Shown here: piece after piece, positions 15,701-62,103 of the stretch
How the letters are laid out: every line of letters starts with the position of its first letter
Numbering within the stretch: position 1 is the stretch's first letter
Program-made: the position numbers and the translations under genes
DNA from: Escherichia phage D5505
Strand: one strand, 5' to 3'
Sequence record: MK327929.1
DNA: 64,000 nucleotides
The notes under the pieces: model-generated
Told to the model about the DNA's origin: nothing
Databases searched by the model: none
The model's input: only the letters and a program-made list of their open reading frames with translations

Positions 15701-17757
15701 TACATCTTGAACTTTTTAGACATTCCGTTGATGTTAACCAAAGAAGCTAAGATTTGAGAAACTTCGTTTTCCTCTTCTTTTGATTCTTCTACAAGGAATT
15801 GATTAAATCCAGCCATTGGACGAACTTCACCAGTTTCCATCAAATGATCGCCATCATATACTGATTCTTCTAATTGCTCAGAAGGAGGAACGATTGTACC
15901 TTCGATTAGATACTTGTTATAAGCAGTTTCTTTCATAAAGTAAGTACTTACTTTATTAATCTTCAGTAAAATTCCACGCGGTAGAATAACTTCAGCTTCT
16001 GATGGAAATCCTGATAAATGACCCGGAACGATAACTTTGATTCGCTCAGCTCCTTTAATTACCATACCCACGCTAGTTTCAGCATCTTCATTAGCATATG
16101 TAGAATGACTACCCATATGCATCAAATCTTCTGCATCAACGGAACCTTCTCCTTCACCAGAAAATACTGCACCGGAATCATCTAGAGCCATATAGTTTTT
16201 ACCATGCTCGCCGAAGATATTTGGTTTAAGCGATGTAGATACGAAGTTCTTGAAATAGAACATTTTGTTTTCAATGTTATGACGCAAAGTTTTAAAGGTA
16301 ACTTCTTGTCCGCGATAAAGCGTAGTTCCTGGAGGAAGAACTGAACCTTTAGCGAATGCAGAATCCAACGTCTCGATGTGCTTAATAGCTCGTTCCATAT
16401 ATTCTTCACGGGTAGAATCTGGTTTACCCAAAAGGAACGAGTTCATTTCAACATATGAATCTGCACAATAATCTTCAATTACATCAGATTCGGCCTGAGT
16501 CAGTCCTTTTGGAGTTACTTCAGTGCTTGCGTATTCATATGCCTGGGCAGCAGATTCATTAATCAATTTATAAATGCCATTCATGACAAATTGAATAATA
16601 GCTGTCTTTTCATCTGGCGTAGCTTTAGAACCTTTAACTAAATCATTAATAATTTTCTTAATAACATCAAAGCTATTAGAAATATTAATGTCAGCAAGAT
16701 CGCTTAAAATTTTATCAGTTTTATAATCAAAGAATTCTTTATTCTTTAAATATTCTTGAGAACCTTGATATGTTATATCGCTCTGCAACTTGATAGATGG
16801 ATCACGTAAACGTGCATGGGCCAATGCAATATGATTTCGGAAGCTTTCTAGTTCATAATCGCTAGATTTAAAACGAGAAGCACTTCTCATACCACCGATA
16901 GCTCCTTTGCTGAAGTTTGAACCAATCTGGATAACGCCAGAGTTCATTGGTCCTTCTGCTTTATATACCGGAACTTTAGATTCAAACTCTTGATATTTCT
17001 TGGCAGCGAAGCTATCACCCTGTAGCGAAGCATCGACAGTAGAATATTGAGCTTGTGCTGCTAATCGACGACTAATTTTAGTTTTTTGAATAACAGCTTG
17101 ATCCGTGCGCTTATCATTTTCTAAAGCAATAGAAGCAGCAACAGCGACAGCTTTAGGAACAGCATTACCTGTTTTAACATCTACATAAACATCACCGACC
17201 TTCGATTCAACTTTTGTGAATAACTCAGTTGAAATAGGAGGTACACCTGGAATGTCTTCTAAATTGGCATTTTTACGGTAAACCATAATATATGCATACT
17301 TTTTATCATAGTCCCAGATTTCCTTTAAAAGAACATATCGACCTGCTCCTTTAGTACGTACTAAACGGTCAGCAATAACTTGCATTTGACGAGCAGCGCC
17401 ATTTGTTTTACTCTTTAGTACGCGGAATAAGCATGCATCAATTTTATACTGTTTCATTGTTTGAAGAGCAGTATCAAAAACAGCGTTAATGACGCCAATT
17501 GGATTTCCACCCAAGTTTCTAAGTTTAACCAGTGATAATTTCTCGTTGACACCTATCATTACGATATGCATCATTTTATCGCCCGGCTTAACGTTTTTAT
17601 TTGTATCACCTCCAGAGGTGTATGTACAAAATCTAAATCCAGGAAGCACGCTTTCTTCGCCGGCTTGAATAGCAAAAATTTGAGGTATTTTATGCTTAGG
17701 ATTTAAGTTAACAACCGGCGCCGAAGCGCCGTCAAATAATTCTGTAATAAGTTCCAT
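15700..17757 (-). CDS. Alt-like ADP-ribosyltransferase paralog
   Basis: 685 aa; N-terminus MELITELFD shared with Alt; R-S-E ART motifs LYRGQ, FVSTSL, EVILPRG; divergent C-terminal half. Confidence 0.8.
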   Translation of the reverse strand: MELITELFDGASAPVVNLNPKHKIPQIFAIQAGEESVLPGFRFCTYTSGGDTNKNVKPGDKMMHIVMIGVNEKLSLVKLRNLGGNPIGVINAVFDTALQTMKQYKIDACLFRVLKSKTNGAARQMQVIADRLVRTKGAGRYVLLKEIWDYDKKYAYIMVYRKNANLEDIPGVPPISTELFTKVESKVGDVYVDVKTGNAVPKAVAVAASIALENDKRTDQAVIQKTKISRRLAAQAQYSTVDASLQGDSFAAKKYQEFESKVPVYKAEGPMNSGVIQIGSNFSKGAIGGMRSASRFKSSDYELESFRNHIALAHARLRDPSIKLQSDITYQGSQEYLKNKEFFDYKTDKILSDLADINISNSFDVIKKIINDLVKGSKATPDEKTAIIQFVMNGIYKLINESAAQAYEYASTEVTPKGLTQAESDVIEDYCADSYVEMNSFLLGKPDSTREEYMERAIKHIETLDSAFAKGSVLPPGTTLYRGQEVTFKTLRHNIENKMFYFKNFVSTSLKPNIFGEHGKNYMALDDSGAVFSGEGEGSVDAEDLMHMGSHSTYANEDAETSVGMVIKGAERIKVIVPGHLSGFPSEAEVILPRGILLKINKVSTYFMKETAYNKYLIEGTIVPPSEQLEESVYDGDHLMETGEVRPMAGFNQFLVEESKEEENEVSQILASLVNINGMSKKFKM

Positions 17758-24582: not shown

Positions 24583-24612
24583 ATACTATCACAAAGGAAC
24601 CATACTGTAAAC
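24583..24612 (-). promoter_or_regulatory. early promoter GTTTACA - 17 nt - TAGTAT
   Basis: T4 early promoter consensus on the minus strand, preceded by hairpin 24642-24659. Confidence 0.5.
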
Positions 24613-24665
24613 AACTTTATGCAATCTTTGGAAAATAAAAAAGGACTCCCGAAGGAGTCCTCAAC

Positions 24666-24842
24666 TTATGCTTTCTGCTTACCAAAACGAGAAGCATCAT
24701 CTCGAAGAACCGCACGTGCTCGGCGCATGATCTTCTCAACAGTTTGATTGATACGAGAGTTCGACCCACGCTTGTAGCCAGCGCGTTTAGAATCACCAAC
24801 TTTCTTTTCAACTGCTTTCTTTGCTTTAGCTTGTTTTGCCAT
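24666..24842 (-). CDS. small basic protein (30.9 position)
   Basis: 58 aa from ATG 24842, Lys/Arg rich. Confidence 0.45.
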   Translation of the reverse strand: MAKQAKAKKAVEKKVGDSKRAGYKRGSNSRINQTVEKIMRRARAVLRDDASRFGKQKA

Positions 24843-25240
24843 TATAAATTCTCTTTTAAATGAAAATGCAGGACTTATTGGCATTGCCTGCGCAAGCCCT
24901 CAAGGGGAACATAGGTTTTTGGATATTTAACGACCAGGATAACCATAAACCCGTCATCATACCTTATAGCTCTTATCTGTTGCACACCGTTAGCTTAAAG
25001 GTTCCGGGTTCGATTTCTCGAGGATAAGATATATACTGATGGATATATAGGCCTTGAGGCGTACTCCCGATTGGCCATCACCTCGGGGTAGCATGCACTT
25101 GCCGCTATAAGAATAACATTCAAGAGGTACACCGTAAAACTGCCGGGGTCTTAAAACTATAATGATTCACAAATCATTAATCAGACAGTTCGACGGCTCC
25201 TCGTTTTAACTTCACACTAAGGCAGTGACTCTCCAATAAA

Positions 25241-25489
25241 TTACTTCAGTGTTACCACAAAGTGACGAACTGCTTTTCGTGCAGCAGAAGCCAGAGGCTT
25301 AGCATATTTAAGTTCATCTTTTTCCTGAAGCTCAGCAGCTAATGCAGTTTGAGCAGGATTCAGATGTTTGAAATAACGCAGGATTTCAAGAGCTTCGGCT
25401 TCAACATCAATAGATGCGCCATAGTTTTCGTGACCATTATTCCATGCGTTTCGTTGCAGTTCAAGAGCGTGTTGTAATTGTTTAATCAT
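25241..25489 (-). CDS. rIII: RIII lysis-inhibition accessory protein
   Basis: 82 aa, position beside gene 31, length as T4 rIII. Confidence 0.8.
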   Translation of the reverse strand: MIKQLQHALELQRNAWNNGHENYGASIDVEAEALEILRYFKHLNPAQTALAAELQEKDELKYAKPLASAARKAVRHFVVTLK

Positions 25490-25636
25490 TTAAAAATTCT
25501 CGTTAGAGATTAAAACTCGGTAGTCACGTTCTTCTGAATTTCATCTTCTTTCGACAGATCTCTCAGTTGTAGACTACCACATAGAATTGTTCGGTTAACT
25601 TATTATTCCGACACCCAATTCATATTATTATTTATA

Positions 25637-27490: not shown

Positions 27491-27723
27491 AGTACGCCAT
27501 ACACCCTTTGTGCTTCAACTAATCCATCAAAATCCAATTTGAGATGTGTTATTTGGTCACCATCACCTGGATTCACAATTACTAATACCGAACGAGGAGT
27601 TTCGGTAATAACACGAACCGACGTTTCAGGAAATCGTTCAGAAACCTTATTTACCAATTCTTGAGCAAATAGTTTAACTTTTTCTTGGAATTCTTTAACA
27701 GTAATTGGTTTTTCGCTTAGCAT
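27487..27723 (-). CDS. hypothetical protein
   Basis: 78-aa ORF. Confidence 0.45.
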   Translation of the reverse strand: MLSEKPITVKEFQEKVKLFAQELVNKVSERFPETSVRVITETPRSVLVIVNPGDGDQITHLKLDFDGLVEAQRVYGVL

Positions 27724-28244
27724 GTTGATCCTAGCTCCTTACTTTCAACATTTTTAACTAATTTGACAGAAACTAATTCAGCATCTTGGGTAATCATTAC
27801 CGGACCTTCTTCATGCTCTTCAAGATATTCTAGAGCTTTCTTTTTAGCTTCTTCCTTCGTATCAGTTTGAGCATAGATATAGAACATACAACCAGTAATA
27901 CCTACTACTTTCCACTTAATTTCTTTATCAGTTTTAATTTCAAATTTACTTACAGAATCATCTTTTTGAACTTCTTCGAAAAAAGAATATTCTAACATAT
28001 AAGCAATTGAAAATAACGGGCTAACTTTATAGGATTCACCCATTACATCAACAGCTTTATACCAACAATCATCAATTTCACGTTTAATGCTAATAACATT
28101 TTTCGCAGGATCTATTTTTACTTTAAATGAATTTTCCCCAATAAACTGGGCAATTCGTTTATTAGCCCCGCAAGTTTCATTAAAAATATCTTTATACCCA
28201 GTTTTAAAGCGATAAACCTTATCTTCTTCAAACCATTCGCTCAT
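27717..28244 (-). CDS. hypothetical protein
   Basis: 175-aa ORF, early promoter GTTTACT...TATTAT upstream (28262-28291). Confidence 0.5.
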   Translation of the reverse strand: MSEWFEEDKVYRFKTGYKDIFNETCGANKRIAQFIGENSFKVKIDPAKNVISIKREIDDCWYKAVDVMGESYKVSPLFSIAYMLEYSFFEEVQKDDSVSKFEIKTDKEIKWKVVGITGCMFYIYAQTDTKEEAKKKALEYLEEHEEGPVMITQDAELVSVKLVKNVESKELGSTC

Positions 28245-28784: not shown

Positions 28785-30192
<1,408 letters not shown>

Positions 30193-39171: not shown

Positions 39172-40200
<1,029 letters not shown>

Positions 40201-40211
40201 ATTATCTCCTA

Positions 40212-40544
40212 TTAAAAAGGATCAGGAACATATCCGCTAGCTTTAATCATTTTAATTAACGTTAACATTCCTTTGTTAACTGCTCGTGAGATTTCATCAA
40301 AAACTTCATCACTAAAAAGTTCTAACACGCCCTTCTGAACTTTTAATTTACAGCCAACAATTTCGTCATCTCCTATAGTAAATTCGCTTCCGCCAATTCC
40401 GCCGAAAAACTTAATTACGCCAGTTAACTGTCTTCCACGAGAATATGGGTCGTGTGATAAAGTAATATGAGTCACCCCAGGTACAGTTTTAAATTGGCAG
40501 CGGATGTTTACTTGAGCAATTCCAGTTACATGAATGTCAGACAT
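40212..40544 (-). CDS. hypothetical protein
   Basis: 110-aa ORF. Confidence 0.45.
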   Translation of the reverse strand: MSDIHVTGIAQVNIRCQFKTVPGVTHITLSHDPYSRGRQLTGVIKFFGGIGGSEFTIGDDEIVGCKLKVQKGVLELFSDEVFDEISRAVNKGMLTLIKMIKASGYVPDPF

Positions 40545-50765: not shown

Positions 50766-53711
50766 ATGGCTACTTTAAAACAAATACAATTTAAAAGAAG
50801 CAAAACTGCAGGTCAACGTCCTGCTGCTTCAGTATTAGCCGAAGGTGAATTGGCTATAAACTTAAAAGATAAAACAATTTTCACAAAAGATGACTCAGGT
50901 AGTGTTATAGAATTAGGTTTAAAATATGGAGGAACTATAAATGGGTCTTTAGAGGTTACAGAAAATATAACTGGAACTTTAATTGGAAATTCTAGCACAG
51001 CTACTAAATTGCAAACACCTAGGAAAATTAATGGTATATCTTTTGATGGGTCAAAGGACATTACCTTAACTCCATCTGACATAAATGTCAATAGCACAAC
51101 ATTTATAAAAAATAATGGCGAATTACCTACTGATGCTAATTTAGATACGTATGGGCCCATTGAAGAATATCTTGGTGTTTGGTCGAAATCTACTTCAACA
51201 AATGCGCAACCAGCAAATAAATTCCCAGAAGAAAATGCCGTAGGTGTACTAGAAGTGTTTGTGGCCGGCCAATTTGCTGGCACTCAGCGTTATACTGTAA
51301 GATCTGGTAACGTCTATATTCGTTCCTTATCTGCTAAATGGAATGGCGTCGATGGTCCATGGGGTGTGTGGCGTAATGTTCAAGCGTCAACTCGTCCACT
51401 TTCACAAACGATTGACCTTGATAGCTTGGGAGAATTAGAACATTGTGGCTTATGGCGAAACAGTTCAAGCGCAATCGCATCATTTGATCGCCATTATCCA
51501 GAAGAAGGATCAGCCGCACAAGGATTTTTAGAAATATTTGAAGGTGGTTTATACACGAGAACTCAGCGTTATACTACCCGCATGGGTATGGTTTATACTC
51601 GTTGTCTCGCTGCTGCATGGGATGCTAGTGCACCTAAGTGGGAGGAATGGAAGCAGGTTGGTCATGGCACACCAGCGACTTTCTATGATGGTGACCTTAA
51701 TGATTTTAAAACTCCTGGGTTATATAATATTTTAGGCACCGATGCCGTTATTAACTGCCCTACAGGTGAAGGTTTGCCGCCTGTTATTGTTGGTTTGCTG
51801 GAAGTTAAACAGCGTGCTTCTGGTGGTGCTATTTTCCAAAAATTTACTACTGCCGGAACAGGCGCAACTACTCGCGGACGTATTTTTGAGCGTGCATATA
51901 CTGGTGGTGCGTGGGGTGCATGGAACGAAGTATATACATCTTACTCTCTGCCAATTACTTTGGGTATGGGTGGTATTAAAGCTCAATTAGCGGAGTTAGA
52001 TTGGCAAACCTTTGATTTTGTTCCTGGTAGTATGTTTAGCGTTCCTTTAAACAAAATAAAGAACATGCCAGCAAATATGGATTGGGGGACGATTGACGGA
52101 AACTTGGTTATGTTTTCCGTTGGTCCTAGCGAACACACTGGCACAGGGCGTACTGTTCAGGTTTGGCGCGGTACTGTATCCCAGACAAACTACCGTTATT
52201 TCGTTGTTCGTATCGCTGGTAATCCAGGAAGTAGGACTAATACTTGTCGCCGTGTTGTTCTTGAAGACGGATCACATACTTGGACTGCTCAACAAAACTT
52301 TAGGGGATTGCTGAATATCACTGCTGCTGTTAATCTTGGTGCTAATCAGAAAATTTCACTTGCTCCAGGAGCATATATTCAAGCCCCTGCTAGCGGTTCT
52401 GGTTCTAATACTTACGCAAATCAGAATACTACCATTGCGCCATTATATCAGGCTATTGACGATTCAAATAAAAACCAGTTTGCGCCAATTGTTAAACAGA
52501 AAAATACTGTAAGTAATATCACCTTTGCCACTGGTATGGCTATAGGTACATCCGAATATAAGATCATTGCTCAGGGTGATTTATCCGCTGATGGAACAGC
52601 AGATGGGTTAAAACAGTGGACTTTCATGCCGTCAGGTTATTTTAAATCTCCAGGGCGTGTATATGTCGGTGATGCGTTCCTTAATACAGATGGTAATATT
52701 GCCGGTTCAATCTGGAAGAAATATAACAATGCGACAAATTTAGATGCTGCCTTGAATACTCGCGTAGGTAAAGGCGGTGATACGATGACAGGTCGGTTAA
52801 CAATCAATGCACCTAATGATTCTATTGTATTATCAACGACTGCTAGTAATTCTTTGCATATTCGTGGTGACATAGACGGGACTGGTAACTGGTATATTGG
52901 TAAGGGTGGTGCTGATAATTCGCTAGCATTTTATAGCTATGCTTCTCAGGCGGCAGTACATATCACAAACAATGGTGAGATTGCGTTAAACCCGCAAAAT
53001 ACCGCAATGGTTAACGTTAACCGTGACCGTGTACACATTAACGGTTCTGGATGGATTGCTAGACAACCGGGTGATTGGGGCAACCAATGGCGAGTAGAAG
53101 CTCCATTATTCGTTGATCATGGTTATGTTTCACAGGATTGTTATTATCCTATTCTTAAAGCAAGAAGCGTTATAACCAATCAAGGATATAGCACCGCTGT
53201 TGACTTTGGTATGCGTCGTATTCCATCACAGTGGGGGCAAGCAATCATTCGTGTCGGATCCACGGAGGCTTCTCCTGATGCTGGACACCCACAAGCTGTG
53301 TTTGAATTCCATCATGATGGATTCTTTTATACACCAGGAAATGGTAGCTTTAGCGATGTGTATATTCGTTCTGACTCCCGTCTCAAGATTAATAAAGAAG
53401 AATTAGAATATGGAGCGGTCGAAAAAGTTTGCCGACTGAAAGTTTATATTTACGATAAAGTTAAGTCTATTAAAGACCGTAGTGTTATTAAACGTGAAGT
53501 TGGTATTATTGCTCAGGACCTTGAAAAGGAATTACCGGAAGCTGTATCTAAAGTTGAAGTTGATGGATCTGATGTTCTGACAATTTCTAACTCTGCTGTG
53601 AATGCTCTTTTAATTAAGGCTATTCAGGAAATGAGTGAAGAAATTAAAGAATTGAAAACGCCTCTCTTTACTAAAATTGTTCGCAAAATTAGTAAATATT
53701 TTAAATTCTAA
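50766..53711 (+). CDS. 37: gp37 long tail fibre distal subunit with C-terminal intramolecular chaperone domain (T2-type)
   Basis: 981 aa; C-terminal ...[12 protein letters not shown]... resembles the S74 autoproteolytic chaperone signature. Confidence 0.8.
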
Positions 53712-53716
53712 CAACA

Positions 53717-53734
53717 AGGGGGAAATGCCCCCTT
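53717..53734 (+). terminator. hairpin GGGGG-AAAT-GCCCCC + TTT
   Basis: GC stem-loop between 37 and 38. Confidence 0.45.
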
Positions 53735-53747
53735 TGGAGTATAAATT

Positions 53748-54527
53748 ATGGCAGTAGTTGGTGTTCCTGGTTGGATTGGAAGTTCAGCCGCAAATGAAAC
53801 AGGACAGCGCTGGATGAGTCAAGCGGCTGGTCAATTAAGATTGGGTGTTCCTTGCTGGATGAGTCAATTTGCAGGTCGCTCACGAGAAATTATTCACACG
53901 CTTGGAGCAGACCATAACTTCAATGGTCAATGGTTCCGAGATAGATGTTTTGAGGCAGGTAGTGCACCTATAGTGTTTAATATTACAGGTGATTTAGTAT
54001 CATATTCTAAAGATGTTCCTTTATTCTTCATGTACGGAGATACACCAAATGAATATGTTCAGTTAAATATACATGGCGTAACGATGTATGGTCGTGGAGG
54101 TAATGGTGGTAGCAATAGTCCTGGCTCAGCTGGGGGTCATTGTATTCAAAACGATATTGGTGGGAGACTAAGAATTAATAATGGTGGAGCTATTGCTGGC
54201 GGTGGCGGTGGCGGTGGCGGCGGATATTATTCTCCTTTTTCACAAATGAGATTAACCTTTGGCGGTGGTGGGCGTCCGTTTGGTGCACCTGGCGGATCTA
54301 TTGATATGCAATCAGGCGCAACTGCTGGTACTATTTCTGCACCTGGCTCAGGATCCGTGAATGGTATCTATAATGGTGGAAACGGTGGTGAAGTAGGTTC
54401 CGCGGGAGGTAGATGCAATATTCGCGGTCAAGGATCTGAATATAATGGCGGCGCTGCTGGTTATGCTGTCATAGGGTCTGCTCCAACGTGGCAAAATGTT
54501 GGAGCAATATATGGTCCAAGAGTATAA
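53748..54527 (+). CDS. 38: gp38 tail-fibre tip adhesin (T2-type, glycine-rich motifs)
   Basis: 259 aa; GRMs including a run of 9 Gly (GGC/GGT codons 54198-54224). Confidence 0.75.
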
Positions 54528-54557
54528 TGTGAATAAATACCCTTAAAAGGAGGGTCT

Positions 54558-58100: not shown

Positions 58101-58205
58101 TTTAATCTCCGTTTCAGTTCATTTATTTGATAGGTCTATAGTATCATGTTTAAAGCAGAAGTAAACACTTTTTTGCACTCTTTTTCAAGAGCTCTAATAA
58201 AGTAC

Positions 58206-58433
58206 TTACTTAATGTTCAGATTACGAACTTCGATTTCGTCTTCATGGGCAAAATCAAACTGTTTGAATTCTGTGTCACCTTTAAATTTAAAAATCATTG
58301 TGAAGAAAGTCAGAACACCAGGTTTTTCTTCACGAACTCCACAGATATCATATTCAATACCATCTACAACCAGTTTGTTAGCAGTCAGAGCATTTTTAGC
58401 TTTAACGATTTCGTTTTCGATTTTAAATTTCAT
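58206..58433 (-). CDS. hypothetical protein
   Basis: 75-aa ORF downstream of early promoter 58483-58512. Confidence 0.45.
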   Translation of the reverse strand: MKFKIENEIVKAKNALTANKLVVDGIEYDICGVREEKPGVLTFFTMIFKFKGDTEFKQFDFAHEDEIEVRNLNIK

Positions 58434-58482
58434 TTTTTGTATCTCCGGGTTGTTTGTTTCAGTTCATTTATTTGATAGTTGT

Positions 58483-61839: not shown

Positions 61840-62103
61840 TCATAGTTCAATCTCAGCGATTTTCATTTCATTATTGTTAATAGCATTTTTAAGACTATCC
61901 GAAAGAATTACATTCCAGTGGTCATTCATATGACCATTAACTAAGCGTGTAATTTCTTCGGGAGTTGAAAAATAAGGCGTATCAGACTCCCAATGCGATA
62001 ATCCTAAGCGAGTATAAATCATGCCTTCATCATCGCTAGAATATTCAACTGACACAAACTCATCAGTTATTTTATGTTTAGCGTAATAAAATTTAAATTT
62101 CAT
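61840..62103 (-). CDS. hypothetical protein
   Basis: 87 aa from ATG downstream of early promoter 62138-62167 (track ORF extends upstream through promoter). Confidence 0.45.
   Translation of the reverse strand: MKFKFYYAKHKITDEFVSVEYSSDDEGMIYTRLGLSHWESDTPYFSTPEEITRLVNGHMNDHWNVILSDSLKNAINNNEMKIAEIEL

Follow-up and report, generated by a model that had tools for sequence, protein, structure and literature searches.

A covarying structured RNA with a kissing-loop contact predicted between rIII and 30.9 of T-even-type phages

Comparative sequence analysis of Escherichia phage D5505 (sequence record MK327929.1) points to a structured RNA in the gap between the genes rIII and 30.9. The RNA, hereafter the core, takes up 159 nt at positions 24958–25116 of the 64,000-nt stretch that was analysed (the window), lies on the minus strand and is read from 25116 to 24958, as delimited by covariation and a covariance model, R1. 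From the alignment of its homologues, the existence, the strand and the fold of the RNA are considered near certain. It is best read as a stand-alone accessory RNA that binds a protein or a ligand, in a broad sense, to which we give a probability of roughly 0.6; the way in which it would act is proposed with low confidence. An original prediction, made from the letters of the window, had flagged 24885–25240 as a candidate structured RNA or decayed tRNA-like element. Covariation strongly supports a structured RNA, on the opposite strand however, and in 24958–25116 only of the flagged stretch.

The alignment comprised 22 distinct, phylogenetically related copies of the core. RNAalifold run on this alignment returned 43 pairs, 20 of which showed compensatory double changes. 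A small inner stem that was placed in the P2 loop (columns 37–39 with 44–46) was replaced with a kissing helix that covaries better and has zero mismatches, and the structure that includes this helix has 45 pairs in 8 helices with 99.1% of cells paired. Compensatory changes were observed at 21 pairs as compared to 8.7±1.7 in shuffles, none out of 500 of which reached the observed number, and to 2–6 in slid controls where the partners were moved by 1–3 columns. Covariation across T4-like relatives, which had been proposed as a check, was hence found far above controls. A total of 72 alignment columns are invariant and 31 of these are unpaired. An all-against-all scan of the columns gave no further clean covarying pair beyond the 45-pair structure. 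Extra tertiary pairing, such as UGCAU with GUGCA, was rejected as it conflicts with the covariation of P6, and an 11-nt GAAA-tetraloop receptor was rejected because the P5 loop is variable.

The RNA was assigned to the minus strand because 35 of the paired cells are G·U while none is A·C. The P5 tetraloop reads GAAA, GUAA, UAAA or UAAU in the minus sense only, and is of the GNRA type only there. Folding of the single sequence against shuffled controls, also proposed earlier as a check, gave an energy modestly better than the shuffles for the minus strand (z=-1.9) and z=-0.9 for the plus strand. An RNA on the plus strand was rejected on the account of this weaker z and is excluded by the G·U asymmetry.

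The fold is closed by P1, which pairs 25104–25110 (CUUAUAG) with 24964–24970 (CUAUAAG) through 7 bp in the window and opens without linker bases into a four-way junction. The P1 consensus is restricted to the four inner pairs (25104–25107 with 24967–24970), three of which covary among the pair types AU, UA, GC, CG and GU, with 97.7% of cells paired. Arm 1 (25050–25103) consists of P1b, an internal loop, P2 and the loop L2. P1b, made up of GGC at 25101–25103 and GCC at 25050–25052, never varies, and the internal loop, AAGUGCAU at 25093–25100 opposite CUCAAG at 25053–25058, is mostly invariant. Out of the 9 pairs of P2 (25084–25092 with 25059–25069) five are compensatory, and 97.5% of cells are paired; L2 spans 25070–25083. 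Arm 2 is the P3 hairpin (25030–25049), where 25043–25049 pairs with 25030–25036 in 7 pairs, three of them covarying, with 99.4% of cells paired. All 6 nt of its loop (25037–25042) are engaged in the kissing-loop helix, a pseudoknot of 6 bp between UGAUGG of L2 (25075–25080) and CCAUCA of L3 (25037–25042), a complementarity between the loops of P2 and P3 that was first spotted by eye. The six pairs are 100% paired in 22/22 sequences, and three covary (CG in 15 and UA in 7; GC in 18, AU in 2 and UA in 2; GC in 20 and AU in 2). The two loops accordingly read CGAUGG/CCAUCG in phage JD18, CUAUGG/CCAUAG in Muldoon and CAAUGA/UCAUUG in Cronus.

Arm 3 (24971–25029) consists of P4, which branches into P5 and P6. 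P4 has 7 pairs (25023–25029 with 24971–24977), with compensatory changes in three; it is the 7-bp acceptor-like helix of the original prediction, which is thus real and covarying but had been placed one base off this pairing. P5 (25018–25021 with 25010–25013) is capped by the loop GAAA at 25014–25017 and shows compensatory changes in 3/4 pairs. P6 (25005–25009 with 24984–24989) encloses a conserved 15-nt loop (24990–25004) and shows such changes in 1/5 pairs. An invariant junction, GCAACA (24978–24983), joins the arm.

The window belongs to a T4-like phage, Tequatrovirus, and its rIII–30.9 locus is 99.8% identical to that of phages JB75 and PYPS2T. The reported gap with no recognised gene between 30.9 and rIII is real, non-coding, and spans 398 nt (24843–25240) as compared to 244 nt in T4. 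Alignment to T4 gave a clean extra block of 153 nt at about 24961–25113 that is missing from T4 and that the core matches, with nearly identical flanks on both sides, termed region A (25117–25240) and region C (24843–24957). GC enrichment, put at about 44% before, came to 43.8% for 24885–25240 against 35.8% for the whole window, a level reached by 2.9% of 356-nt segments.

Blastn located the core in 407 phage records, at one place in each except for a single record with two. Its carriers span at least 8 genera of T-even-type phages of Enterobacterales and hold it in the same rIII–30.9 gap. Annotated carriers include JD18 (Jiaodavirus), PG7 (Karamvirus), Merlin (Moonvirus), JS98 (Dhakavirus), EK29 (Marfavirus), Muldoon, Cronus (Roskildevirus) and COW86c, and in every annotated case the core lies between rIII and 30.9 in the sense of both genes. 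The identity of the core is 65–100% across carriers whereas their flanks are unalignable or rearranged. Its position is loose, at about 5–124 nt past the rIII stop and about 44–185 nt before the 30.9 start in the annotated phages. Among 40 rIII loci taken from viral contigs 15 carry the core, always on the rIII strand and starting 3–130 nt after rIII. Model R1, searched with filters off, matched the window at the core alone (185 bits, E=1e-40), meaning that the core is single copy. No homologue was found by blastn in 5,426 E. coli genomes, and a blastn search of plasmids gave two chance matches only. Ten pattern matches in bacterial genome contigs, together with pattern matches in non-T4 metagenome sequence, were judged to be due to chance, and two further pattern scans of viral contigs combined with the covariance model gave no more distant relatives.

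The core is missing in T4 and in T2-type phages, whose site is either empty or holds a 50–57-nt cassette. The site thus has three alleles among close relatives, namely empty (T4), core or cassette, which looks like the cassette exchange described for promoter-early stem-loop (PeSL) elements. The cassette of the T2 type reads ATTTTATACTATCACGCGTCAGAAAAAGGTTATCTGTCTAAGTCGTGGTTG and carries a GGUUAUC motif too. Absence from T4 lends weak support to the earlier suggestion of a horizontally acquired fragment. Between genera, however, the core is 94, 93, 85 and 70% identical where 30.9 is 87, 85, 84 and 78% identical, and as its divergence tracks that of 30.9 and the locus is the same in at least 8 genera, old ancestry fits better than recent acquisition. 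The core is therefore probably not a recent import, shared ancestry with repeated loss, or with exchange of cassettes, being simpler.

As an accessory RNA, the core would be co-transcribed within the rIII–30.9 transcript that ends at a terminator at 24641–24662. It is placed on this message, presumably from the promoters of rIII, because it lacks both a promoter and a terminator of its own and P1 includes bases just upstream. It would fold as an autonomous domain and act through its tertiary structure, in that the kissing contact would bring two conserved loop regions together for the binding of a conserved partner. This partner would most likely be a host or phage protein, or else a small ligand. 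The core would then be dispensable rather than a regulator wired to 30.9.

Several points weigh against this. The kinship of the 22 sequences means that the shuffle statistics overstate independence; this is mitigated by several pairs that show three or four pair types and by the slid controls, which preserve relatedness. Covariation taken alone would also be compatible with folded single-stranded DNA of the same strand. Transcription, processing and stability of the core we infer from sequence, and as a scan found no promoter or terminator bracketing it, a discrete RNA may never exist. T4, T2 and many other relatives lack the core so that any function is dispensable there. A hunt for a partner gene turned up three open reading frames (ORFs) of the window that are absent from T4, with distributions unlike that of the core (302, 708 and 477 records versus 407).

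A broader proposal is that the core founds a new class of functional RNA, either a self-cleaving ribozyme or a phage riboswitch or aptamer that recognises a metabolite or protein of the host, such as a decoy against host defence. In that case the two invariant loop regions would be assembled by the kissing loop into a site for catalysis or binding. We hold this as a tentative possibility that we would not bet on.

A cis-regulatory leader or riboswitch for 30.9, which would sense a metabolite or the 30.9 protein (gp30.9) and control translation or read-through, is unlikely. It would account for the core always being found upstream of 30.9 on the same strand and for the aptamer-like, P1-closed multi-helix junction with its loop-loop contact and 31 invariant unpaired columns; gp30.9, small and very basic, could plausibly bind RNA. 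Wiring to 30.9 is nevertheless disfavoured because of the modular position of the core, the lineage-specific P1 and the lack of a conserved alternative pairing. The spacing of about 44–185 nt up to 30.9 is filled with varying modules (H, T and other hairpins, described below), both P1 and the 3' flank differ between lineages with no conserved alternative pairing noticed, and an expression platform at a fixed relation to the gene was not found. T4 furthermore keeps 30.9 without the core, and homologues ahead of other genes were found neither in bacteria nor elsewhere.

Comparably improbable, and placed behind the riboswitch, is a new class of self-cleaving ribozyme. It would cut the rIII–30.9 transcript, the kissing loop docking the conserved internal loop of arm 1 on the conserved P6/J6-4 region much as in the VS (Varkud satellite) and hairpin ribozymes. 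Self-cleaving ribozymes are common in phage genomes, and a size of about 155 nt, a multi-helix junction, a kissing loop and two invariant unpaired blocks in different arms would suit such an activity. No Rfam ribozyme family matched even at E≤10, the VS and hairpin ribozymes resemble the core in topology alone and the sequence permits no inference of a cleavage site. More generally, none of the 4227 families of Rfam 15, which include known riboswitch and self-cleaving ribozyme classes, matches the core. The suggested Rfam scan accordingly came back empty, with no match at gathering threshold in the 64 kb and none at E≤10 inside 24843–25240.

The probability is low that the core is a passive element of the message, that is a fold in the 3' untranslated region of rIII that blocks 3'-to-5' exonucleases or shapes RNase E processing and so stabilises rIII/30.9 mRNA. 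The core does lie within an mRNA, with A/U-rich flanks, and it starts 5–15 nt past the rIII stop in Merlin, PG7, Cronus and COW86c. A mere stability hairpin is disfavoured. A simple hairpin would suffice for stability, a need far exceeded by 31 unpaired nucleotides that never vary and by the tertiary contact made through the covarying kissing helix, and the fold energy beats that of shuffles only modestly at z=-1.9.

Explanations without a functional RNA fare worse. We regard as very improbable a cassette acting at the DNA level (a module for recombination or promotion of the PeSL kind, a mobile inverted repeat or a folded single-stranded DNA site) and, equally, a small protein gene. The three-allele hotspot, the ends of the core, which form an inverted repeat, and a weak TTTACG-N17-TATTCT sequence at the junction would agree with a DNA cassette. 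There is however one copy per genome, and seven helices with compensatory changes, together with strand-specific G·U pairs, are unexpected for a duplex DNA site. As to protein, the original prediction of no ORF above about 35 codons was wrong, as a 55-aa ORF is found on the plus strand (24860–25027) and a 45-aa ORF on the minus strand (24995–25132). None of the frames stays open throughout the 22 sequences, with breaks in Cronus, Muldoon and PG7; core indels of 1, 2 and 7 nt break reading frames in the alignment. A conserved short ORF, named before as what would refute an RNA, was consequently not observed across genera, and the 34-aa ORF, the sole ORF within the core that was scanned, is without a PHROG match. 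Some GenBank records do annotate ORFs here. Coding sequences named "hypothetical protein" lie over the core in MH355584 (JB75_0063A), MZ234027 (CHD2BS1_176/177), PP597396 (COW86c_228) and many Klebsiella phage records; some use TTG starts and the frames vary between genera. These entries are probably annotation artefacts.

A decayed tRNA or tRNA-like element, as first suggested from a T-loop-like string GGGTTCGATTTC on the plus strand with a 7-bp helix nearby, is barely credible, since ARAGORN found no tRNA gene in the whole window, no Rfam tRNA or tmRNA model matched at E≤10 in 24600–25600, model R1 is without a match in the tRNA/rnaC/rnaD region of T4 and the G·U asymmetry assigns the RNA to the opposite strand. 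The string does occur at 25006–25017 but it is no T-loop; it is antisense to the RNA, where it complements the tetraloop of P5 together with one strand each of P6 (5') and P5 (3'). Between genera the TTCGATT of the window changes to TCCGATT (JD18) and TCTGATT (PG7), in ways that preserve P5 and P6. Nor does the fold resemble a cloverleaf, its 159 nt forming a four-way junction that includes a kissing loop. Even when taken together, the tRNA-like, DNA-level and ORF readings are left with very little probability.

Other elements were noted on the minus strand of the gap, and those of regions A and C are common to the window and T4. Region A, directly past the rIII stop, holds an A/U hairpin, UAAUGAUU-UGUG-AAUCAUUA, at 25160–25179. 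This is the palindrome AATGATT/AATCATT reported before, whose halves are present at 25161–25167 and 25172–25178 with CACA, not TGTG, as the plus-strand spacer. A scan of the gap found no terminator and no sigma-70-type promoter at the threshold of 9/12 or above, in line with the promoter consensus reported as absent. A weak site at 8/12 has TTTACG (25133–25138), a 17-nt spacer and TATTCT (25110–25115). It resembles the T4-type early consensus TTTACW-N17-TAYWAT and its -10 falls exactly at the cassette junction, although it is not conserved in other genera. A promoter here is at most suggested by the likeness. The start predicted at about 25103 would lie inside the core and past the 5' strand of P1, and the site was rejected as the promoter of the core because such a start conflicts with the covariation of P1.

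Region C, also present in T4, contains the H module at 24915–24962, which consists of GUAUGAUG, a hairpin and then GUUAAAUAUCC. GACGGG (24950–24955) pairs in the hairpin with CCUGGUC (24932–24938) around the loop UUUAUGGUUAU. Compensatory changes are seen in its stem between genera (GAC/GUC, GGC/GCC, GUG/CAC and GUC/GAC) while the loop, UUnUnGGUYAUC with its near-invariant GGUYAUC, is almost invariant, and the window has the module once only. Its side relative to the core differs, being 3' in the lineages of the window, T4-type phages, Cronus and PG7 but 5' in those of JD18, EK29 and Muldoon. Further along, upstream of 30.9, the T hairpin CCCCUUGAGGG (24897–24907) precedes CUUGCG, after which another hairpin, GCAGG...CCUGC (24868–24891), stands just before 30.9. 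The pattern CCCYUnnRGGGCUUGCG is kept upstream of 30.9 in most genera, and the CCCCUUGAGGG-CUUGCG hairpin could be a processing site or a regulatory element of 30.9. In JD18-type phages a long GGGAGC...GCUCCC hairpin comes after CCCCUUGAGGG-CUUGCG.

Genes on the minus strand are arranged in the order 31, rIII and 30.9, followed by the intrinsic terminator. The upstream gene rIII (25241–25489) encodes a lysis-inhibition accessory protein, as assigned by PHROG 1457 (E=5e-44) and the annotation of relatives. Downstream, 30.9 (24666–24842) encodes a very basic protein of 58 aa, assigned by PHROG 1427 and the T4 annotation, for which no relative was found in Pfam, NCBIfam or the PDB. The terminator (24641–24662, minus strand), detected by a terminator scan and annotated as such in JB75, Merlin and Muldoon, has the form GAGGACUCC-UUCG-GGAGUCCUU plus a U-run and closes the unit of rIII, RNA and 30.9. 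Sub-threshold Rfam matches at 24627–24710 on the minus strand, to Atu_C8 (31 bits, E=4e-4) and Phe_leader, were rejected as small RNAs since this strong terminator accounts for both.

Outside the locus, segments of the window without a blastn match in T4 103–169 kb are 15720–17073, 27723–28241, 29877–30189, 39173–39373, 39972–40532, 50921–54532, 58147–58468 and 61873–62097, plus four shorter ones. These include a divergent part of alt, an ORF of 175 aa close to the cd genes, one of 106 aa adjoining pseT and small ORFs near frd.

A literature search on the locus and on non-coding RNAs (ncRNAs) of T-even phages found no description of the core, though it may be listed in a catalogue of structured RNAs from viruses compiled in bulk in 2023. 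According to a 2010 review, no T4 riboswitch or trans-acting small RNA had ever been functionally characterised, and the genomes of T4 relatives were suggested as a source of candidates (PMC3014915). The core is a candidate of the sort that was foreseen, in one of the most intensively studied groups of viruses. It occurs in hundreds of coliphages as well as in phages of Klebsiella, Enterobacter, Citrobacter, Serratia and Erwinia, many of them candidates for therapy. Natural knock-outs exist in T4 and T2, along with an alternative cassette at the core site, and annotation is corrected where several GenBank records call hypothetical proteins.

Among known systems, rnaC and rnaD of T4 (the species 1 and 2 stable RNAs) are structured stable RNAs of about 120–140 nt with roles unknown (PMC3014915). 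The core resembles these as a structured RNA encoded by T-even phages. Unlike the core, rnaC and rnaD sit inside a tRNA cluster, and T4 has them while lacking the core. Model R1 run with filters off over the tRNA/rnaC/rnaD region of T4 scored 6.3 bits at best (E=0.37), at another place in the locus, and kinship with rnaC/rnaD was rejected as there is no model similarity. The PeSL cassettes of T4-type phages are short units of promoter plus hairpin that are repeated around the genome (PMC2839356, PMC4122927), and their consensus was taken from PMC4122927. As with PeSL, the core site is an intergenic junction with insertion, deletion and replacement between close relatives, and in region A a stem-loop is followed by a weak T4-early-like -35/-10 (8/12, below threshold). 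The core itself is instead present once, as a fold of 159 nt whose tertiary structure covaries, and is not a promoter-hairpin unit.

With the purine and lysine riboswitches the core shares a P1-closed junction whose neighbouring arms are held together by a Watson-Crick loop-loop contact. It differs from these in being larger, in having a four-way junction plus a three-way branch, in lacking a conserved expression platform and in its variable distance to the gene. In the VS and hairpin ribozymes, two conserved internal loops are united by helical junctions, and in VS, which measures about 150 nt and is to our knowledge known only from Neurospora mitochondria, by a kissing loop. The core is similar to these in topology only, with no similarity in sequence or model. 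A parallel in kind is with the orphan motifs of the Weinberg/Breaker type in Rfam, which like the core are defined by intergenic covariation, a complex fold and conserved unpaired bases. Unlike those motifs, the core belongs to no family of Rfam 15 and is confined to one locus of one phage subfamily, and we file it, from the comparative evidence, as a new RNA family of this orphan structured ncRNA kind.

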